DNA of 23,961 nt, taken from a virus. The position numbers and the translations under genes are program-made. Under the pieces are notes generated by a model, which worked only from the letters and a program-made list of their open reading frames with translations, was not told the origin of the DNA and did no database searches. Positions within the stretch are counted from its first letter, which is position 1. Each line of letters begins with the position of its first letter. The stretch lies in the IMG/VR virus record IMGVR_UViG_3300045988_094266, one strand, 5' to 3'. Below are positions 248-16,437 of this stretch, in pieces.

Positions 248-886
248 ATGGAATGTATTTTAACTGGATAGGTTAAAAACCAAAATGCTATTACCGTACC
301 AGGAGGCGGTAGCGCAGAAATGGGAGAAACATTAGGGTTAGGACCTTATACTATTGAATTTGATGAAGAAGATAATGAAAATCTTACTGCATCATCAATA
401 GAATATAATAATGAAACTTCAAGTATGAAAGCCACTAATGTTCAATCAGCTATTGATGAGCTTTTTACCGATGTCAGTGAGGGCAAAACCCTAATAGCGA
501 CCGCAGTCACTGACAAAGGAGTAGAAACTGCGGCGACCGATAGTTTTTCAACTATGGCAGATAAGATAGGATAGATTACAACAGAAACCCCTATAGAAAC
601 GGTGGATATTATATTTGAATCATTGAGTGGTATAAGTGGATGTACTGTAATAATAGAATATGAAAATGCGCCAATGTCAGTATGGGTAGTGTAGAAAAAT
701 AATTATAAAGTGATAAAAAATAGTATTATAACTATAAATGCCGGTTCTTCTTCAGGACTTAAAATTACTCCTCAGTCTGCATATGAAAGTTTGGGAGCTA
801 TATTAATAAATAATAATTATCAAGTTATAGCATATAAAATTATTGGTCCCGCTACAATTACTTCTACTGGAGGTAATATTAATTAA
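248..886 (+). CDS. tail-fibre / receptor-binding-like protein (about 212 aa; alternative start ATG 320); 3 in-frame TAG codons (269, 572, 692)
   Basis: The ORF is continuous to TAA 884-886 when TAG is read as a sense codon. It has a TNVQSAIDELF...GKTLIATAVTDKG motif reminiscent of Firmicutes phage fibre proteins. RBS GAAAGGAG precedes 248 and AGGAGG precedes 320. Confidence 0.55.
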
Positions 887-908
887 ATTTAGGAGGTAGT
901 ATTATACT

Positions 909-1307
909 ATGATAAAAGTAAATGGGAAAAAGGTTGCTGGAATAGGGTAGCCTGGATTAAACGGTAAATCTGCTTATGAAACAGCTAAAGAAGGAGGGTT
1001 TACTGGAACTGAAAAGGAGTTCAATACTATATTAGCAAATTCTGCACTTAAACCTATTATTAAATTGATAACTCTATATTCATCAGCTTGGTCTAATAAT
1101 ACTCAAACAGTAAATATAATTGGAGTATTGAGCGATGAGGGCAAATAGATAATTTGTCCAACTCCAACAATAAAAGATATAGATATATATAATAATTCAG
1201 GCATTTAGTGTATAAATCAACAAGAAAATAGTTTAACTTTTAAAGCCCAAAAAATTCCAGAAAATGATATATAGATATATATAATTTTGTAGGAGGTGCG
1301 AACATGA
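909..1307 (+). CDS. tail-fibre-like protein with collagen-like/fibre motif GQPGLNGKSAYETAKEGGFTGTEKEF (132 aa, 5 TAG codons)
   Basis: RBS AGGAGG lies 9 nt upstream of ATG 909. The G-x-x / KSAYE-A---GF-GTE-E motif is typical of phage fibre and host-specificity proteins. The gene ends at TGA 1305-1307, overlapping the next ATG (ATGA). Confidence 0.5.
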
Positions 1308-1552
1308 TTATTAACCAAACTTTTCAGACGGAAAAGTATTCAATAATAGATAAAACAAGCCTTCAATATGGCTATCCAGTAAGAGCAACCCCTGGAGAAA
1401 TTGTTTACAGCAGTCCTATGAGTGCAGGAATATCAGATAATGTATATTTAATAAAAGATGGAAGCTCTATTGATGATGTTTATTCAGATGGTAGATATAA
1501 ATTTATAATGCCAGAAGGCGATGTTTTGATTGCTAGAGATTATCCTTGGTAA
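1304..1552 (+). CDS. hypothetical small protein (82 aa), possible fibre C-terminal or assembly module
   Basis: Intact ORF with RBS AGGAGG. Its start is translationally coupled to the previous gene. It ends at TAA. Confidence 0.5.
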   Translation: MIINQTFQTEKYSIIDKTSLQYGYPVRATPGEIVYSSPMSAGISDNVYLIKDGSSIDDVYSDGRYKFIMPEGDVLIARDYPW

Positions 1553-1586
1553 TCTTATATATATTATATAATAAAATTTTATATAA

Positions 1587-2294
<708 letters not shown>

Positions 2295-2345
2295 AGTTAA
2301 ATTATCTTCCTATTGTTTTATATATAATATAAAGGAGGAATTAAT

Positions 2346-2735
2346 ATGCCTGAAATTGTTATTCAAATATTCTAGCTTTGTATTCTTCCTCTGCTTGGTA
2401 TTTTAACAAAATATCTCATAGATTTCCTCTCTGCTAAACGAGATGAGTTAAATTCTAAGACAGAGAATGAAACAGCTTAGAAATACACCACTATGATATT
2501 TGATACTATTACTAAATGTGTAATAGCTACAAATCAGACTTATGTTAATAGCTTAAAAGAACAAGGTGCTTTTGATGCTGAGGCTCAAAAAATTGCATTT
2601 GATAAGACTATGGAATCTGTATTAGAGATCTTATCATCTGATGCAAAACAATATATTATTGAGACAACTGGCGACTTAAATACTTACCTAACTAATCTCA
2701 TTGAAGCCGCGGTTAATGAAAATAGAGCATCATGA
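2346..2735 (+). CDS. small membrane protein, N-terminal TM helix then soluble domain (130 aa, 2 TAG); possible holin-like
   Basis: RBS AAAGGAGG precedes ATG 2346. There is a hydrophobic N-terminus (IVIQIFQLCILPLLGILTKYLIDFL). The gene ends at TGA 2733-2735. Confidence 0.45.
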
Positions 2736-2738
2736 TAT

Positions 2739-2770
2739 AATGGGGTTACTATGCCCCATTATATTTTTAT
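2739..2770 (+). terminator. rho-independent terminator (AATGGGG-loop-CCCCATT plus ATATTTTTAT)
   Basis: 7-bp GC stem immediately after the stop of gene 2346-2735, followed by a T-rich tract. Confidence 0.5.
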
Positions 2771-2777
2771 ACTAAAA

Positions 2778-2825
2778 TTGGCAAAAATTTTGGCAAAATA
2801 GTAAAATTATCTTTGCCAAAATTTT
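2778..2825. promoter_or_regulatory. site cluster B: 19-bp near-palindrome TTGGCAAAAATTTTGGCAA (2778-2796) plus TTGCCAAAATTTT (2813-2825)
   Basis: Same 9-bp half-site consensus, and the same full-site-plus-half-site layout in the same orientation as cluster A. It lies upstream of gene 2872. Confidence 0.5.
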
Positions 2826-2871
2826 ATATAATAATGAAAGGCCAAGGGAATATTTTAAAGGAGGTAAAACT

Positions 2872-3297
2872 ATGGCAGTTAATTATCCATACTATATACC
2901 ACAACAATAGCAACCTTAGTATGCGGCAATCCCTTATGCTCCGCAACAAAGAATGCCCTATGTGGAATAGCCCTAGATTGGAATTAAAGGTCGCCCAGTT
3001 TCTTCAATAGAAGAAGTAAAGGCAACTAGCATTGACTTTGATGGTTCTGTATTTTTCTTTCCTGATTTAGCTAATAAAAAAATATATACAAAATAGATAA
3101 ATTTAGATGGAACTTCAACACTTAATGTTTATGAATTAAAAAATATTCCGATTGAAACAGTTGTCAATCCTTCTTAGTTTGTTACTAGAGAAGAATTTGA
3201 AACCGTACTTGCTCAATTAAAAGAAAAAATTGCGCCATAGGCAAATAAATAGCCTACAGCGCAATAGCAGGAATCAAAGCCAAAATTAGATTTTTAA
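2872..3297 (+). CDS. Gln/Pro-rich hypothetical protein (141 aa) with 9 TAG codons, several inside poly-Q runs (CAA CAA TAG CAA)
   Basis: Strong RBS AAAGGAGG. The protein reads MAVNYPYYIPQQQQPQYAAIPYAPQQ...APQANKQPTAQQQESKPKLDF. TAG is embedded in CAA/CAG runs. The gene ends at TAA 3295-3297. Confidence 0.6.
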
Positions 3298-7422: not shown

Positions 7423-7665
7423 TTATTCCTCCGTAATGGTAATTGGCATAATGCCTTCTGGTTCTTTCTCGTTGTCAATAGTAATAGTAGCGGTGACGAG
7501 TTGATACTCTTCAACTATTTCACCTTTTTGCTTAATATATTTAGTAGTGTATTTAAATGAAGTTAATTCTCCTACCGAGGTTTTTTCTAACCATTTGCGC
7601 AATCTAAGAGCATCTTCTACAGTAGGCACCCTATAAGTATTTGTAGACTTTAAATTATAAAACAT
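7423..7665 (-). CDS. hypothetical protein (80 aa)
   Basis: ATG 7665 follows RBS GAGGG. It starts right after the TAA of the upstream gene and ends at TAA 7423-7425. Confidence 0.45.
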   Translation of the reverse strand: MFYNLKSTNTYRVPTVEDALRLRKWLEKTSVGELTSFKYTTKYIKQKGEIVEEYQLVTATITIDNEKEPEGIMPITITEE

Positions 7666-7666
7666 A

Positions 7667-7933
7667 TTAAATTCCCTCAACTGTAATTTTACTATTTGAA
7701 TACATATTTTTTTCCAAATCATTTACAAGTTTATTGATTTCTCCTGTTATTGCAAAAGGAGCATGAACTTGTATACTATATATTCCGTTTCCATAAGCAA
7801 TTCCTACAAGGGCTTCAGCTAATCCATTAATATCAGAGCATACTTTCATTTGTTTTTGTAGTCCATCATCAACAACATATACAGCAGATTCCATAGCAAA
7901 TGGATCATAATTTACAATAATAGCATTTGTCAT
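7667..7933 (-). CDS. hypothetical protein (88 aa)
   Basis: Intact ORF. Its ATG overlaps the stop of the upstream gene (ATGA). Confidence 0.45.
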   Translation of the reverse strand: MTNAIIVNYDPFAMESAVYVVDDGLQKQMKVCSDINGLAEALVGIAYGNGIYSIQVHAPFAITGEINKLVNDLEKNMYSNSKITVEGI

Positions 7934-8274
7934 ACCTATATCACCCCTTTTGTATAATCAAAGAACGCATACATATCACATTTCTCTCCATGTAAAATCC
8001 AAATTTCTACAATATTTCCATTTATCTCTATTGCCTTGATTTCTCCAAGTGTCTTAGAAACAGAAATAATCTCGCTTGCCATTTTATTTTTATTTACATC
8101 GTTTTCATAGGTAAATAAAGTAAAATATTTATTATCGTGATTAAGCATCATATAATATCTAGAATTATTGGAATCTAAGAATGTGATAATATTTCTTTTA
8201 GCTTTCTCTAATTCAGCCTTTGTCATTTTTGGAAGGGAGGCATATCCCGCTTGATTTAGCTCGTATAAAGTCAT
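7930..8274 (-). CDS. hypothetical protein (114 aa, 1 TAG at 7936-7938, ends TGA 7930-7932)
   Basis: ORF 7936-8274 continues through TAG for two codons to a TGA that overlaps the next ATG. Confidence 0.45.
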
Positions 8275-8310
8275 ATCTAGTCCTCCATTTCTTTTAATAT
8301 AATATCATAA

Positions 8311-8853
8311 TTATTTTATTCTGTCAACAATAATTGCACCAATAGCATTGCCTATTGTAACTACTATTAAAAATAATATTACATCAATAGAAAGCACACC
8401 TGCGGCCAAAGTGTAACAAAGATCTGCAATACAGTGTTCTCCGCCGAATAATATAAAACCTGTTACGCAGACTGGCACCATATAATCTTTATTTCTTTTA
8501 AACGAGGATACTGCCGAATATATAAATATACCACAAACCATCCCCTTTAAGAAAACTAAATATAGTGGGATTGCGATCTTAGCAGAGACTAGAGATAGAG
8601 CGGCTGCGTGCGGAAAGGCTAAGATCCCGCACGCTCCAATAATATTTCCTATTAAAATAATAAGATTATCTTTTATATCATTTTTGCTCTTGATATAACC
8701 AACTGAACCTGTAAATAATTTAAACTACATATTTAATATAGTCAGTAGGCCAATGGAAAACATAATAGCTCCAACTATACCTCCAACAGATAAGTAGATA
8801 TAGCTAGCTATTGCTATCATTAATCCTCCTAAAATACTCTTTACAAAGTTCAT
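8311..8853 (-). CDS. FNT-family (formate/nitrite transporter-like) polytopic membrane protein, short form (180 aa, 1 TAG), translationally coupled to nrdG
   Basis: ATG 8853 overlaps the NrdG TGA (ATGA). There are multiple TM segments. The motifs LNMQFKLFTGSVGY (like GAELFTGN), FGGEHCIADLCY (like SGFEHSIANMF) and VVTIGNAIGAIIV (like VTIGNIIGG) recall the signature regions of FocA-type channels. It ends at TAA 8311. Confidence 0.5.
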
Positions 8854-9323
8854 TTTAGATAAATTATTTTTTGATTGCGGCTTCCTCTAAGAGGTTCCGT
8901 AATATCTCTTTCATGTTCAATATATGGCCCATCAATTAGCACATCAACTAATTGGAATATATTCTAAATAACTGTATCTGTTGAATTTTTTAAATCTTCA
9001 TACAAGTATCCAGTCCATAAATAAACCTTTAAATCAGGAATTGTTTCTTTTGCGGTTTGTATTACCAAATGAGTTAGAAATGTATTTTCTGGACATAGTG
9101 GCTCGCCGCCCATAATACATAGAGTTCTTTTAACTCCATTTGCAGTAAGCCCTTCTAAGATTGAATTAAGGGTTTCATGGGTAAATTCTTTTCCTCCATT
9201 AAAATCCCAAGTCTCTTGATTGTGGCAACCTTGACATCTATGAGGACATCCCTATGTAAAAAAACTCAAAGACACTCCAGGTGCGGCAGAAAAGTCATTT
9301 TTTATAATACCTGCATACTTCAT
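8850..9323 (-). CDS. nrdG: anaerobic ribonucleotide reductase activating protein NrdG (radical SAM, 157 aa, 2 TAG)
   Basis: ATG 9323 overlaps the NrdD TGA. The motif is GCPHRCQGCHNQETWDF, with a CxxxCxxC 4Fe-4S cluster. It ends at TGA 8850-8852. It is missed by the ORF track because of TAG. Confidence 0.8.
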
Positions 9324-11533
9324 TCCATATACCCCACGTGTTTAATTCTCGCTTGTGTTTCGGCCACTTTTCCTTTATTAAAGGCTGTTTTATAATTTCC
9401 AGTAAGATATCCTGTTACGCGTCTTAACTGTTGAATATCTTCACTACCACACATTGGACACTTATCATTAAATTCACCAGTATAACCACATTTTAAGCAA
9501 GTATCATTAGGGACATTAATTGCAAAATATGGAATATCATGATTCATAGCATAATTAACTAAAGTCTCTAATGCATCAATATTATTCTCCATACCACTAT
9601 CAAGTTCAACATAAGTGATACAACCGGCAGAAGAGTAGCCAGTTAATTGGGATTCAATATCAATCTTATCAAAAGGGGACATTTGTTTCCATACAGGAAC
9701 ATGAATAGAGTTAGTAAAGTATTCTTTATCACTTACATTTGGAATAATTCCGTATTTATTTTTAAATTTAGTCATAGCTGTATAACATAAATTCTCGGCT
9801 GGAGTAAAATATACTCCGAAATTTAGTTGATATTTTTCTTTATACTCAGCACATCTATCTTTGAATAATTGCTCAATACGCTTAGCTAACTTCATTCCCT
9901 CTTCTGTGGTATGGTCTTTACCAATAAGAATTTGTAGAGTTTCAGCTAATCCAAGTTGCCCCATAGCTAAAGTTCCATGTTTTAAAGCGCTTCGAGTAGA
10001 AATTCCATCATATCCAGCCATTAAGCCGTTTTCATACATGAATTTCGCGGATTCCGCGGGTTGAGAACAAATATACTCAAATCTCTCAAGAAGCATATCT
10101 TTAGCATCATTTATAGCTTGATCTAAGAAATCAATAAAAGTTTCAACACAAGAGTCGTCTCCGCTTGGCATGGTTTCCCAATACTTTTTAGCCTCCATAG
10201 CCAATGTTGGCATAATAATTGTTACTGGACAAATATTTCCACGACCATCTTTTTGTTGGCCTAATCCATTAATGTCGAACCCATTCGCAGTTCTACAACC
10301 CATAGTAGAGAAGTATGTCTTAGGATCATTTTTATCATATCCTGCATTTCCGCTCCAATCAACATTGGCATAATTGGGATATAATCTTAAAGCAGTAGAT
10401 TTTAAAGCGATTCTGAATAAATCATAATTGGGATCACCAGGAGCTCGATTAATTCCTTTTGCACATTGAAAGATGCCACAAGGGAAAATAGAAGTTTTGT
10501 GAAGTCTACCAAGTCCCTCAATAGAAACTTCAAGTAAAGCCTTAATTACCATTCTCCCTTCTGGAAGAGTACAAGTACCATAGTTAATAGAAGTAAAAGG
10601 TAATTGATTTCCAGATCGAGACTACAAAGTATTTAAATTATGATACATACCTTCAACTGCTTGATGAGTCTCTCTTTCTGTCATATCTATAGCATATTGA
10701 TACGCATTTGGGTATTCTTTATATATTTCACTATCAATAGGAAGAGTAGAATTTAATCTATCATCCATAGATAAAGTATGTTCAACATAAACAAGTCCAT
10801 CATTAAAATGTTTATAAAAACTCTTTCGTACATATGGAACCATAGTCCAATCCAAGTGAGTAGCAGATACTCCACCAAATTGTTGTAAACTCTGTAGTTG
10901 GAAAATAACTGCAACAAGCTGGAAAGCGGTATTTACAGAACCCGCGGGGCGCACATCAGTTTGTCTAGTATTAAATCCCTTTTCAAGTAAATCATCGAAA
11001 GGAATAGAAAGACAGTTGTGCATACCTACAGCATAAGCATTTAAATCATGAATATAAATTCTATTATTTTCATGATTTACTCGTGATTTATTAGAAACTA
11101 AATAATCAAGAGCATACCTTTTCATTTGTAAATCTGACGCTGCTCCAACTCGTCCGCCAAATGACATTTCATCTACATTGGCATTTTGGTTTTCAATATC
11201 AGAACCTTGAATCTTTGCAGAAAAGGCTTTAATAAAATCATCTTGGCCTTTTCTTGCAATCTCTCTTTTATATCTATATCTAATATATTCTTTGGCTACG
11301 TCTCTACGTTCAGATTTCATAAGATAATCTTCAACCATATCTTGAATTTTTTCAACGGAAACTACATCATCAGATGTTTTTACAGCATACTTAATTTCAT
11401 CTGCAATATCATTTGCTGTATCATCTTCATATAATGCCCCATCAACTTCGATGAAAGCTTTATTTATAGCGTTAATAATACGCTCTTTATCAAATGGTAC
11501 TAGGATACCATTTCTCTTTCTTACTTGAAGCAT
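9320..11533 (-). CDS. nrdD: anaerobic ribonucleoside-triphosphate reductase NrdD (class III, 737 aa; ORFs 10622-11533 and 9320-10552 joined through TAG 10622-10624)
   Basis: N-terminal ATP cone (MLQVRKRNGILVPFDKERIINAINKA). The join reads ...HNLNTL-Q-SRSGNQLPFTSINYGTCTLPEGR. The C-terminus has a Zn ribbon CLKCGY...CPMCG and a glycine-radical RVTGYL motif. It ends at TGA. Confidence 0.9.
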
Positions 11534-11548
11534 ATATAAAACAACTCC

Positions 11549-11980
11549 TTATCTCGTTTTTTGTATATATCTCTACTTTTCCCTTTGTAAAGATTCTAAA
11601 GTCTTTTTGCTTTTTAATATTCCATTACTATCATTATAGTATAAAGAAATGAATGAGTTCAATGCATCACTTGGACCTTGAATCTTTTCGCTTTTTCCTC
11701 CACCAGGCATTGTATTATATCCAACAGAGGGATTGGTAGAATTATAATATGATATATATTGCTTTTCTAACTTATTACTTTCATCTAGCGTAAGATTATT
11801 TTCTAAAATTATATGTTCAAAATTATTCCATCCATATTTCTATATATCATAATAAAAAGATATATTTTCCTTGTATCCATTACCATTTTGCCATCTCTTA
11901 TTTGGATTATCTCCAAATTTGGTTTGTCCAATATATACTTTATTATTTATTTTATTTCTATGCAAATATATACAATACAT
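11549..11980 (-). CDS. free-standing GIY-YIG endonuclease (homing-endonuclease-like, 143 aa, 2 TAG) between gmk and nrdD
   Basis: RBS GAGGTGG precedes ATG 11980. The protein reads MYCIYLHRNKINNKVYIGQTKFGDNPNKRWQNGNGY...ISFYYDIQKYGWNNFEHIILENNLT...YNSTNPSVGYN, matching the GIY-(10)-YIG, R, KYGW.NF and N signature. It ends at TAA 11549-11551, directly upstream of the nrdD RBS. Confidence 0.75.
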
Positions 11981-12035: not shown

Positions 12036-12608
12036 TTAATAAAATTGTCCAAATATAGTATCAACAGCAACATCAATATCTTCTAAGGTGTCGTTTTTAA
12101 GAGTTTTATATTTTATATCATCAAGGAAATGAAAGTCTTCCGTATCTGCCTTATATCTTCTAATAATTTCATTTACATCAGGATTTTCTTCTCTATTTAA
12201 CTATCTTAATAATCTCTATTTACCCGCGGCCCGCACATAAAATACATAAAGCTCAATATTGTCATCTTCTTGTAGACATCTTACTCCTTCAGGGTTAAAG
12301 ACCCCTATATTTATTTTGTCTATTGTTAGACTTTCTCTATCTGTACCATAATGCCAATCATTAAATTCTGTTGCTTCTAGCATATCTCCATTAAGAACTT
12401 TTTTTGTAAATTCATCAATAGATAGAAAATAATAATTAATTCCTTCTTTTTCCCCTTCTCGCGGAGGGCGTGTAGTACAACTGATAATTTCATTGAAATA
12501 AGAAGGATATTTCTCCATAATACTATGGAGAATAGTATCCTTCCCACTTCCTGCTTCACCCATTAACGCTACTATCTTCATCCTCTTCTTCTCCTTGTTT
12601 TCTTTCAC
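12036..12608 (-). CDS. gmk: guanylate kinase-like (d)NMP kinase (about 190 aa; alternative start 12581; 2 TAG codons extend ORF 12216-12608 to TAA 12036)
   Basis: P-loop GEAGSGKDT. The motifs SCTTRPPREGEKEGINYYFLS and EATEFNDWHYGT are present. The C-terminal extension through TAG is RLLRQLNREENPDVNEIIRRYKADTE...NDTLEDIDVAVDTI, which matches the Gmk C-terminal lid/LID-helix pattern. Confidence 0.75.
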
Positions 12609-15600
12609 TTCTTAAAATTAAGTCTGTACCATTGACAATTTCATCAATGTGATAAAGTTGATGACCTCCAGAACTTGCATATTTCTTTGTTACAAATTCA
12701 TCTCCGCGTCTAATTCCCTGCACAACAATCATATTACCTCTATTAAACCATGATTTTTCTATGACCTTTTTTGTGCCATCTTCGTTTCTCTGGAAAGTTT
12801 GCTTATCAAACAACGCGAAGTATTCTTGTCTAAACTTAACCGCTACAACTCCAGTAGTGGTAAGAAGATATACCGTACTTTTTACTTTATTTTTTGCAAT
12901 ACAAGTTCCACAAATCTTATATAGCTTATAGATAGGAATTAATGAAGCACCCTTTTTAAATACCTTATCTACTTGAGGTTCTTCTGGTAAACTAAAGAAG
13001 TCTACAAAACCATACTTACTATTGTTGATATTTGATAATTCATGGTCATGATAATAAAAGCACAAAGATTCCATTTCCCAAGAAGAAATATTACCAGAAG
13101 CATATTTCTTCCAATCTTCCATAAAGATTGTAGTATTTAAGTCATCTAAAATCTTTTCTTTGTTTTCTGCAATCCATGCTCTAAATACATCCATGTAACT
13201 TTGATAAACCTTATCCCAAGATTTTATATCAATATACCAAACTAAATTATCTGTTTCAAGCAGTTTTTCGCAATCAATTTCAACTAAGAAAGTTATTGCT
13301 CTTTCATCTAGCTTATACTTACCTGCATTATATGGGTCTTTACATTCTGCTTTTAAATATCTATTAAATTCGTAAACTCTTTTGGGCATTACAAATTTTT
13401 CATCATCAGGAATGAGATTATATCTCATTAACCCAGGTAGATTTTGTAAAGTAATTCTTTTCTTTTTATCACAGGTAATCCATATATATTGAATCATTGC
13501 TTCCATCCTAGGATGAAACTGATCAAACCCTCCGCCCTTAATTAAAGAAATCATTGCTTGTTTATTTGGATGTACTTTATTAAAGAAATCAATTAAAGAT
13601 ACATAGGGGCGATTATCAACAATGGTTTTAATTAAATCATTGTTTACATTAGATAACCCTTTTAAACCAAACAAGATTTGATTATGCTCAACATCTGGTT
13701 TAAAACCAAAATCAGAATGATTAATGTCAACCAAAGACACTTTTATACCAGCATTACGAATTTCTCCAATGGCTTTAGCAATCTTGGTATAATCTGATTG
13801 TTCTCCTTCTTCTTCATTAATGGCACCGCTATTGACAATAAGATATGCTGTATTCCAATATACTGGATTAAAATGGGTAGCAAGATAAAGAGTTTGCATA
13901 CCAATAAAGCTATAAGCAAGAGCATGGATAATAGAGAAACTATAGCCCATTTGTGGACCGATGCCATAATTCCATACATATTGCCCCAATGCTGGAGATT
14001 TCGCAGAATTTAAAACTTTTTCTCTCAACTCTGGAATTTTGTTCATTTGCTTCTTACCAACTATTTTTCTTGCAGTATTAGCTTCAGCTAACGTAAATCC
14101 GCAAATATTTGGGTCTTGAAGCATAGTCATCATTTGTTCTTGGCTGGGAGGCACACCATAAGAACGTAAGAAATGAGGTTCAAGAATTTTTTGTTCTTCT
14201 TTTGTTAAACCCTACTGATCCATTTCTTTATACCAAAGAGAAATATTATTTTTAAAACGAACATACTTCTCCATTGGAGTTTCTGCACCCTTTTCCGCAG
14301 TCATTAGTCTCATCAATCCATTAGCGTCCGCCATTTCGTGCGGATTTTGAGGCTTAATCTTTTTTGCTGCTTGAGCGCCAACACTAGAATCAAATTGGAA
14401 ACAGCCAAGAACATCTCCATTGGCAAGAGCATCCCACATTTTTTTATCGTCTTGCGGGAGGACAGATGGATGAAGGTATTTATTATAGACTTCACGCAAT
14501 GTTAAATCTTTTTCAATAGCGCCATCTTTTTGCAATAGCTCAATAGTTTGAATAATAATATCCTGTACTGCTGTAAGCAAGAAATCGTACTTGACAGATC
14601 CAGCGGCTTCTTGATCATGAAGATCCCATTGAGTAATTAATGCTCCTTTTGGAGTTCTCATTACCGCGGCTGTATCAAAAATATTTTGATCAAATAAGAT
14701 TACCCCAGAAGCGTGACTCGAACGTTTATTTACTAGTCCTTGAATTCTAGTAATAATATCTAGTAATCCAGGATACTGATTCACAGTATTCACAAAAACT
14801 GAAACAGATTTGCGACCTTTTTCTAGATTACCATTAACCACATCCTCAATGGGCCATAGAAAACCTCTTTCTTGTGGAATAAGAGAACTCATATATTGAG
14901 CCATATCTACATCAATTCCGTCAGGATAATCTTCTGAACGATAGCCTCGACAGGCTGTTAAAATCGCAGATTTAGTTCCTTCTGTGCCAAAAGTGCAAAC
15001 TTGTACTAAGCCAAGCTCTCCTCGTTCTTTTCTAATCTCCGCGAAAATCTTTTGAATCTTTGATGGTGCCAAATCTAGGTCAATATCACCAAGTTCAGTT
15101 CTTTCATCGTTAATATAGCGCCAGAAAGGAAGATCCCATTCAATCGGATCTAGTTGAGTGATTCCAAGAAGATAATGGTTCAAAGCAGCACAAGCTGATC
15201 CTCGCCCTGCACCTACGGTACTTCCGCAATTCCAGAACAAATCTACATAATGTTTTAGAGTATTTGGGTATGCAAACATACAAGTTCCTAGTTTTTCTCC
15301 AATCACTCTCTTTACTCTTGCTTCTTCTTCTAATCTTTCAAGATATCTAGGATCATTAAATAAATCTTTTTTCTGCAAAGCAATAATACATTCATTTACC
15401 CAATATCTTTCTTGAATATTATCGCTCCAAATCAAACTAGATAGAACAGGATATTTATCTTCCCACTGATATGGTACAAACCCTTTTTTATAATCTGTTA
15501 CTTCTACTTCTGGAATTGATTGATGACGTTCAAGAGAATAAAATTCAATTTTATCTTTCATTTCGTTTGAGCATTTAAAAATCCAATCAATTATGCCTTC

Positions 15601-16437
15601 GTCATAGCTCAATCTAAGAAGTTCTCTAGTTTCTTGTTCATCCATCAAATGAGTAAACTCATAGAAACTATCAACCTCTCGTTCTCCACCTTTAGAATTA
15701 AGATACGCTTTATGAACATATCTATCTTCTTTTGTTAAGTAATGCGCATCTGTTCCAATACACATATTTATATTAAAAGCCTCAGAGATACTTAACATTC
15801 TTTTATTTGCGATAATTTGATCTGGATAAGAAGCGGGAGCACATTCAATGTAAAAATCATCTTTACCAAATACATCAATGCAGAATGTCATAAAATCAAC
15901 AATTTGATTATGGTATCTCTGTGCGTTAATTTCATCTTTAATCTCTTCACAATTATGAAGATTTAAAATGGAACTACCAAGTTCTCCACCAATACAAGCA
16001 GTAGTCCCAATAATATGACCCTTAAATCTCTGCATTACATCTTTAAGCTCAGATTTAAGCAAAGGAACGCGTTCCATTCTACGGTCATAATATCCATTCA
16101 TCCAAGCAATAGAGGATAACTCCTTTAGTCCTCTATATCCTTCTTTATCTTTCGCGATTAGGATAAAGTGATAATACTTTTGTCCTAAATCTCTTGTATC
16201 AGTTAAATAAATCTCATTTCCTAATGCAATCGTAAAATCGGGATTTTGCTCCCTAATTTTCTTTGCATATTTATTTACTCTCATATGCGCCGAAAGGCTT
16301 TCGTGGTCTGTGATAGCAATTCCCGTCAATCCGACTTCAATAGCTTTATCAATCAGTGCCTCAGGTTTATTTATACAATCTAGCAAACGCAAGTTACTAA
16401 ACTCCGTATGCGCATGATTGTTAAAGTACATACCCAT
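12556..16437 (-). CDS. dnaE: DNA polymerase III alpha subunit, DnaE family (1293 aa; two ORFs joined through TAG 14212-14214)
   Basis: N-terminal PHP domain MYFNNHAHTEFSNLRLLDC...GLTGIAITDHESL. The joined gene is 3.9 kb in a single frame. RBS GAGAGG precedes ATG 16437. It ends at TGA 12556-12558. Confidence 0.85.

Follow-up and report, generated by a model that had tools for sequence, protein, structure and literature searches.

A 23,961-nt stretch of viral DNA (IMG/VR virus record IMGVR_UViG_3300045988_094266; its full length is referred to here as the window) carries on its minus strand three overlapping genes: nrdD and nrdG, which encode a class III ribonucleotide reductase (RNR) and its activase, and a gene for a short channel protein of the formate/nitrite transporter (FNT) family, which we term the mini-FNT. 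We propose that this channel probably imports formate, the co-substrate of the phage NrdD. Both the substrate and the direction of transport are taken from the genetic context: in most of the phage loci analyzed, the mini-FNT gene lies beside nrdD and nrdG genes that appear to be of the formate-dependent type.

The mini-FNT matches the Pfam profile PF01226 (Form_Nir_trans) with 56.7 bits against a gathering cut-off of 34.6 (E = 2.9e-15, profile positions 22–232 of 240), a similarity to the FNT family far beyond chance. The first-pass annotation of this DNA, made from the letters alone, had described a shortened FNT of 180 residues, and the profile search left the protein in that family and not among unrelated transporters. 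FNT channels are catalogued as PF01226 and as TCDB 1.A.16, and residue roles have been assigned in a survey of 2206 sequences (PMC5525234). When a profile built from 32 mini-FNT homologues (alignment A1) was searched against the PDB, it matched 13 solved FNT chains, with V. cholerae FocA (3kly) the best at E = 7e-11 and C. difficile HSC, Chlamydomonas LCIA, E. coli FocA and NirC among the others. The FocA equivalog model TIGR04060 gives 15.1 bits against a cut-off of 290, no NirC-specific NCBIfam match is listed for the protein, and searches of PHROGs and PADLOC returned no match to it. As judged from these profiles, it is best called a member of a distinct mini-FNT subfamily, inside the FNT family but apart from the FocA equivalogs and NirC. 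An exhaustive profile search recovered 526 cluster representatives at E <= 1e-30 from phages and bacteria, and almost all of the 150 best matches listed are 170–220 residues long. Thus, the mini-FNTs make up a sizeable FNT subfamily without a studied member.

AlphaFold2 monomer models were obtained for two relatives: P0001, which is 99% identical and lacks residues 1–11 (predicted local distance difference test score, pLDDT, 94.0; predicted template modelling score, pTM, 0.88), and P0007, which is 74% identical and full length (pLDDT 97.0, pTM 0.91). The predicted fold is aquaporin-like with six transmembrane (TM) helices, in which the omega loop breaks TM2 and the S loop breaks TM5, giving TM1, TM2a/TM2b, TM3, a short helix before TM4, TM4, TM5a/TM5b and TM6. 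No helix is lost; the small size comes from trimmed loops and termini. In a Foldseek search of the PDB, the top 50 matches are all FNT channels, HSC, FocA, NirC and PfFNT among them, with query-relative TM-scores of 0.78–0.85. The models therefore predict the FNT fold that the first-pass annotation had led us to expect. By analogy with other FNTs, the channel is assumed to be a pentamer.

Pore residues were mapped by HMMER alignment to FocA, in the numbering of the E. coli protein (3KCU), and their conservation was read from alignment A1 (Table 1). The three FNT motifs singled out by the first-pass annotation are all present, at residues 45–49, 137–144 and 165–172. L46, T48 and G49 of the omega loop, H140 and A143 of the S loop, and G168, N169 and G172 of TM6 are invariant, and the S-loop motif aligns with FEHCIAN of FocA. 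We take K92 to be the vestibule lysine. Two positions depart from the usual FNT pattern: N172 is replaced by an invariant glycine (G108; at least 90% in alignment A3), and the acidic D/E88 is typically a lysine (Lys45). Of the FNTs, 78% have N172 and 81% have an acidic residue at position 88, which makes both features frequent and not defining (PMC5525234). The mini-FNT gene is under purifying selection, with a ratio of nonsynonymous to synonymous substitution rates (dN/dS) of 0.06–0.10 against four relatives and 0.30 against the near-identical L005, from which it differs by only 8 nucleotides.

NrdD scores 482.8 bits with Pfam NRDD, 77.2 with ATP-cone and 43.5 with Gly_radical, and NrdG scores 137.5 bits with NCBIfam TIGR02491 (cut-off 126.1) and 125.2 bits with Pfam Fer4_12. 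The best solved relative of the window NrdD is the Prevotella copri enzyme (8p23, E = 7e-122), followed by 9d3x and T4 NrdD, whereas T. maritima NrdD is a weak match (E = 4e-10). The P. copri enzyme has been found by experiment to require formate (PMC11226230), and the T4, E. coli and L. lactis NrdDs are formate-using (PMC4390871); T. maritima NrdD is inactive with formate, and its class has been proposed to use thioredoxin (PMC4493059, PMC4390871). The finger loop of the window NrdD, which carries the thiyl-radical cysteine, matches TMGCRT in P. copri NrdD and PMGCRS in T4 NrdD in the alignment, and the methionine that partners the bottom-face cysteine has been described in formate-type enzymes (PMC4390871). 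The two diverged lineages of NrdD linked to a mini-FNT (the L122 and L134 types) are nearest to 9d3x and T4 NrdD (E = 1e-123 to 4e-76) and match the T. maritima type weakly or not at all. Among the FNT-linked NrdDs in which the loop aligns intact, MGCR is kept in all three lineages (STMGCRT, CMGCRSFLT and LMGCRASLSPW); two single loci, L125 and L162, deviate and read MGKR and MRCR. That the FNT-linked NrdDs are of the formate-dependent type is well supported, though not proven, by their likeness to characterized enzymes and by the MGCR loop.

The association of the channel with this enzyme was analyzed in 83 phage mini-FNT loci (from IMG/VR, ENA and Logan) and 76 loci from bacterial metagenome-assembled genomes (MAGs). 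The NrdD, NrdG and FNT of the window were searched against all loci with tblastn, and a locus was scored as linked if nrdD and/or nrdG lay within 6 kb of the FNT gene. By this measure 71 of the 83 phage loci are linked, a strongly positive outcome of the synteny check that the first-pass annotation had proposed for related phages. The order is nrdD-nrdG-FNT in 51 loci, nrdD-FNT-nrdG in 12 and FNT-nrdD-nrdG in 2, one locus has nrdG and nrdD on the opposite strand, and five further loci end at a contig edge with a single partner visible. When the phage FNTs are grouped at ~55% identity, 19 of 24 clusters are linked to nrdD/nrdG, corresponding to a binomial tail of 4e-12 against a generous null of 15%, with the reservation that the clusters are not fully independent. 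The position of the FNT gene varies even on one and the same DnaE-guanylate kinase-dUTPase backbone: it follows nrdG in the window and lies between nrdD and nrdG, overlapping both, in L168–L170. L171 has a split nrdD, and there the FNT gene overlaps its end. Backbone genes of the window are absent from many linked loci, and the linked NrdDs form three lineages, only 24–29% identical to the window NrdD. Given the varied position of the FNT gene, the unrelated backbones and the diverged NrdD lineages, the linkage, as read from these loci, is not mere inheritance of one block.

The extents of the three genes and the ATGA overlaps at both junctions are as the first-pass annotation gave them and agree with the minus-strand open reading frames (ORFs) and the positions of the TGA and ATG codons. 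At each junction the upstream TGA and the downstream ATG have two bases in common, and an nrdG/mini-FNT overlap of 1–4 nt is also present in the relatives L001–L010. ATGA overlaps are frequent in phage operons and unremarkable alone; from the overlapping ends we infer that nrdD, nrdG and the mini-FNT gene may be translationally coupled. In some relatives, insertions of ~630–650 bp separate nrdG from the FNT gene (L004, L097, L102–L113) or nrdD from nrdG (L090–L092, L120), and one of these is called as an ORF of 211 residues without a Pfam match. Thus, the tight ATGA coupling of the window is not universal. A terminator scan (to 13000) found no minus-strand terminator-like site upstream of 6252, which places the three genes inside a longer co-directional block; sites returned by promoter and terminator scans occur at chance-level frequency.

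Under the standard bacterial code (code 11), in-frame TAG codons, on which the first-pass annotation was silent, break all three genes, so products of the lengths given in Table 1 need TAG as a sense codon. NrdD codon 304 corresponds to glutamine in 52 of 52 relatives and NrdG codon 24 to glutamine in 44 of 44 (at least 55% identity in both cases), and in-frame TAGs occur in most long ORFs of the window (1–23961), with up to 9 per gene. It is well supported by these alignments that TAG is a sense codon, read as glutamine, in the window. A tRNA scan of the window found no tRNA gene and hence no suppressor tRNA. TAG codons are especially dense in structural-looking plus-strand genes at 248–3297.

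The start of the mini-FNT gene deserves separate mention. A perfect AGGAGG lies within the coding sequence (the Gly9-Gly10 codons), 4 nt 5' of the ATG for Met12, and automatic gene callers begin the closest relatives at this methionine; the internal AGGAGG explains the truncation to 169 residues. We disfavor this start because residues 1–11 are conserved family-wide, in bacterial members as well (G10 in at least 90% of sequences), and form the first half of the 21-residue TM1, with a pLDDT of 98 in the model of the full-length homologue. On these grounds the ATG at 8853, with its ATGA coupling, is the more likely start, although this is unproven. The gene may also be initiated at both sites.

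Table 1. Genes, junctions, codons and motifs of the nrdD-nrdG-mini-FNT region (window coordinates; pore residues with their E. coli FocA equivalents)
Feature	Position	Strand	Description
nrdD	9320..11533	-	737 codons/residues; class III (anaerobic) ribonucleoside-triphosphate reductase with N-terminal ATP-cone
nrdG	8850..9323	-	157 codons/residues; radical S-adenosylmethionine (radical-SAM) activase for NrdD
mini-FNT	8311..8853	-	180 codons/residues; formate/nitrite-transporter-family channel protein
ATGA stop/start overlap, nrdD-nrdG	9320..9323	-	TGA 9320-9322 and ATG 9321-9323 in GGAATGAAG
ATGA stop/start overlap, nrdG-mini-FNT	8850..8853	-	TGA 8850-8852 and ATG 8851-8853 in AAAATGAAC
In-frame TAG sense codon, nrdD	10622-10624	-	NrdD codon 304
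In-frame TAG sense codons, nrdG	9252-9254 and 8964-8966	-	the former is codon 24
In-frame TAG sense codon, mini-FNT	8725-8727	-	codon 43
Alternative internal start, mini-FNT	8818..8830	-	AGGAGG 8825-8830, then Met12 ATG 8818-8820; 169-residue product
NrdG CxxxCxxC motif CPHRCQGC	9225-9248	-	residues 26-33; radical-SAM cluster motif
NrdD finger loop STMGCRT	10289..10309	-	residues 409-415; thiyl-radical Cys with Met at -2
NrdD glycyl-radical motif RRVTGYL	9404..9424	-	residues 704-710; Pfam Gly_radical; conserved in relatives
Omega-loop motif K45-L46-F47-T48-G49	8707..8721	-	L46 = FocA L89, T48 = T91 (cytoplasmic slit)
S-loop motif G137-G-E-H140-C-I-A143-D144	8422..8445	-	H140 = FocA H209, A143 = A212 (central constriction)
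TM6 motif VTIGNAIG	8338..8361	-	N169 = FNT-invariant N262; aligns with VTLGNIVGG (HSC, FocA)
Central constriction F32/F133/H140/A143			FocA F75/F202/H209/A212; all invariant in the family
Cytoplasmic slit L36/L46/T48/I111			FocA L79/L89/T91/V175; L36, L46 and T48 invariant, I111 hydrophobic but not invariant
FNT-invariant Asn N70, N169			N121, N262; invariant
K92			Lys of V. cholerae FocA QHKL; at least 90% in the family

In the mechanism that we propose, the mini-FNT would be produced together with a formate-dependent NrdD and NrdG from a replication and nucleotide block and would insert into the host membrane as a minimal, ungated FNT pore. This pore would let formate or formic acid pass into the infected cell from the gut lumen, and the influx would sustain the stoichiometric reductant of NrdD while a genome of ~148 kb is replicated. 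Formate-dependent NrdD oxidizes one formate to CO2 for each deoxynucleoside triphosphate (dNTP) made. Assuming 100 genomes of 148 kb per burst and a cell of 1 fL, the need is estimated at ~3e7 dNTPs, or roughly 50 mM formate equivalents per cell. This demand far exceeds a plausible standing formate pool, especially if host fermentation is shut down by the infection. There is precedent for the reasoning: the substrates of FNTs are customarily assigned via operon context, and in focA-pflB an FNT is paired with a glycyl-radical enzyme (PMC5600444). The first-pass annotation had suggested that the channel would supply or vent formate. The supply half is retained here as an argument from context, and the venting half is dropped, since venting makes little sense next to an enzyme that consumes formate. 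A more intimate arrangement, in which the mini-FNT docks the phage NrdD at the membrane and external formate is passed straight into the RNR active site, seems to us doubtful; with the N-terminal helix missing, docking would have to use a surface other than that used by FocA. If it did occur, infected gut anaerobes would be formate sinks, and replication would hinge on formate cross-fed by the community and not on host fermentation.

Several observations weigh against import of formate for the reductase. None of the 76 bacterial MAG loci has nrdD or nrdG within 6 kb or any conserved neighbor (75 loci are judgeable; L029 is 2.2 kb), and the FNT gene lies away from nrdDG in 5 of the 24 phage clusters and in the P0137 and P0177 types. 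Thus, the family is not exclusively an RNR accessory. The bacterial proteins (L013–L088) are 190–210 residues long and belong to Lentisphaeria, Victivallaceae, Thermoguttaceae, Oscillospiraceae and other groups, with ruminant guts as the main source. Cultured phages do not help the case: a tblastn search of INPHARED with the FNT found no complete cultured phage genome with such a gene, the sole match being a 4.6 kb unverified, unannotated human-faecal fragment without nrdDG, and the three-gene region had no megablast match among 50,697 GenBank phage records. T4, with its formate-dependent NrdD, is presumably among the cultured phages that have no mini-FNT. Fermenting hosts often produce formate themselves, and at low pH formic acid passes through membranes without help. 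The direction of flux through the mini-FNT is not to be inferred, and FocA itself is bidirectional. As to the protein, it reaches 23 bits with the NCBIfam 'fnt' model and 15 with the FocA model, far under their cut-offs, and the G108 and Lys45 changes could alter selectivity or gating. The pore signature FFHA/LLT(V/I) is common to FocA, FdhC, NirC-beta/gamma and HSC (PMC5525234), and the substrate can therefore not be named by sequence.

Some of these points feed other explanations. The protein could be a formate channel that is not chiefly an importer, but equilibrates or exports formate for the sake of cytoplasmic pH and formate level during infection, or alters the traffic of host FocA so as to retain host-made formate; any gain for NrdD would then be indirect. 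FocA is indeed bidirectional, with efflux of fermentation formate as its established main role (PMC5600444), and a mini-FNT without the PflB-helix stretch would be an ungated pore. However, NrdD consumes formate, and its tight linkage to an exporter would be hard to rationalize. Identity of ~20% to FocA makes co-assembly with the host protein unlikely, and the linkage is to nrdDG, with no pfl gene in any locus examined. We therefore consider this explanation unlikely. The same pore residues that fail to separate the FNT subfamilies also leave room for another small anion (nitrite, hydrosulfide, lactate or bicarbonate); the channel might, for example, expel nitrite or HS- harmful to the Fe-S activase and the glycyl radical, and the database name NirC would then be closer to the mark. 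IMG labels relatives as NirC, the profile scores for HSC, LCIA and NirC are only slightly under that of FocA, and G108 and K45 are atypical. Such a substrate is nonetheless improbable, because no nitrite- or sulfite-reductase gene lies near any locus examined, and the sole recurrent partner is an enzyme with formate as co-substrate, all linked NrdD lineages resembling the formate type.

We also asked whether the gene might be a historical hitch-hiker, captured once beside nrdDG and serving an unrelated role such as depolarization, superinfection exclusion or lysis timing. A single large and prevalent lineage with a common backbone does account for most linked loci, and some phages hold the FNT gene elsewhere. 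Set against this, the linkage spans three gene orders, unrelated backbones and diverged NrdDs, the canonical pore residues are invariant under purifying selection, and the gene sits in a replication and nucleotide block and has no PADLOC or PHROG match; we give this account little weight. A decaying, non-functional fragment, too short and interrupted by a stop, is effectively refuted. Its length of 180 residues, compared with 250–310 in characterized FNTs, and the in-frame TAG under code 11 might suggest decay, but TAG is read as glutamine throughout the window, the models contain six TM helices and both half-helix loops at pLDDT 94–97, the low dN/dS of 0.06–0.10 speaks for constraint, and the best matches listed from the 526 cluster representatives have a similar length. 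Import of formate thus remains the reading that we favor.

Comparison with characterized channels places the mini-FNT close to several FNTs in fold and apart from all of them in detail. Like FocA (3KCU, 3Q7K and 3KLY, from E. coli, Salmonella and V. cholerae), it has the FNT fold (TM-score 0.77–0.85), constriction and slit, and like FocA in focA-pflB, it is paired genetically with a glycyl-radical enzyme of formate-related chemistry. Unlike FocA, it is ~100 residues shorter and only ~20% identical, and it lacks the N-terminal helix stretch with which FocA binds PflB and gates its channel (PMC5600444): the alignment pairs mini-FNT residue 3 with residue 34 of FocA. The two pairings also differ in chemistry, as PflB produces formate and NrdD consumes it. 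HSC (FNT3, C. difficile, 3TDO) gives the best Foldseek E-value, 5e-06 (TM-score 0.78–0.83), and NirC (4FC4) is among the best (TM-score up to 0.84); both have the identical pore signature. In contrast to the mini-FNT, these proteins have 250–270 residues and longer loops, and they were assigned via their asrABC and nirBD contexts, genes that are not found near the phage mini-FNT. The reductase shares the MGCR loop, RVTGY motif and C-terminal Cys4 with the class III RNRs of T4, P. copri, E. coli and L. lactis, and has a P. copri-like ATP-cone; what is added relative to T4 NrdD/NrdG is the coupled mini-FNT.

The FNT-RNR linkage is apparently undescribed, as the first-pass annotation had supposed, although its parts are known and database labels pre-exist. 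We found no paper on phage FNTs or on an FNT-RNR linkage in the searchable literature, outside which most subscription journals lie, so that absence is no proof; a 2017 survey of FNTs makes no mention of phages, RNR or short forms. A literature match to 'FocB' in an Alteromonas phage was rejected, as it is a fimbrial regulator and not a channel. The claim of novelty is softened by automatic annotation: IMG labels such phage genes 'nitrite transporter NirC' or 'FocA (FNT family)', and UniProt A0A8S5NWF3, 'Formate/nitrite transporter [Siphoviridae sp. ctTnV63]', is a member of the same mini-FNT family (191 residues, 30% identity, TM-score 0.78) and the single significant match in the viral structure library. 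Phage-encoded class III RNR has long been known, with T4 the classic case. Viral transport components are known as well, among them the chlorovirus Kcv and aquaglyceroporin and the cyanophage PstS, with which a virus supports its own replication. These have other folds or substrates, and to our knowledge they do not include a channel dedicated to supplying a viral RNR with its co-substrate.

The three genes are set among genes for replication and nucleotide metabolism and not in a lysis module. In order, the window encodes a Pif1-like helicase, a DnaE-type polymerase, guanylate kinase, a GIY-YIG ORF, nrdD, nrdG and the mini-FNT, followed by three small ORFs without assigned function, dUTPase and RuvC. 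Relatives on contigs of ~145–149 kb keep this gene order, and some of their contigs have been binned into Eubacterium, Oscillospiraceae or Clostridium MAGs. The DnaE-type polymerase (12556–16437, minus strand) most resembles, at 40% identity, the polymerases of SPbeta-like Enterococcus and Bacillus phages (130–142 kb), which suggests that the lineage infects anaerobes, has recoded TAG and is distantly related to the SPbeta-like group. The lineage is very common, with one identical protein variant present on 831 contigs.

Further features were noted around the three genes and in related loci. The small ORFs at 7423–8274 (minus strand; 114, 88 and ~80–99 residues) have no Pfam match, and the first of them lies directly 3' of the FNT gene, at 27–97% identity, in every locus with the DnaE-guanylate kinase-dUTPase backbone. 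The FNT stop codon lies within a near-consensus promoter-like site at 8299–8327 (minus strand; TTGACA, 17 nt, TG-TATTAT, 11/12), just 5' of the gene at 7930–8274; in this AT-rich region, promoter-like sites overall are no more frequent than by chance. Between guanylate kinase and nrdD, a GIY-YIG homing-endonuclease-like ORF (11549–11980, minus strand; 143 residues, Pfam 33 bits) has a counterpart of 99% identity in L009, none in the closest relatives L005 and L006, and counterparts of 33–59% identity in a few other loci. In L009, L010, L110, L120, L125, L140, L143 and L171, the nrdD homology extends over 3.1–3.7 kb, compared with 2.2 kb, or falls into two ORFs that flank a third, small one; nrdD of the window is uninterrupted. 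This suggests introns, inteins or endonuclease insertions, and such insertions in nrdD are known from T4. L171 also contains, at 12356–13567, a reverse transcriptase (RVT_1) adjoining a very large tail-fibre-like gene; this may be a diversity-generating retroelement. The P0137 loci (L164–L167, labeled Bacteroides acidifaciens at NCBI) contain a 52%-identical mini-FNT called at 240 residues, have no nrdDG within 8 kb, and show a different phage-like context, with RnlB antitoxin, LemA, PspA, an ABC permease (BPD_transp_1) and an NMT1/OmpA protein.

If formate import is correct, these phages would be the first viruses with a dedicated supply channel for the co-substrate of their own RNR, and formate availability, besides enzyme level, would limit phage DNA synthesis in anoxic guts. 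Given the abundance of the lineage, any effect on formate cross-feeding in gut and rumen could matter ecologically. At 170–190 residues, with minimal loops and without an N-terminal gating segment, the mini-FNTs are among the smallest FNTs and an attractive model for channel biophysics. For the family as a whole, comprising at least 526 cluster representatives at E <= 1e-30, the recurrent linkage to nrdDG provides a testable functional assignment.

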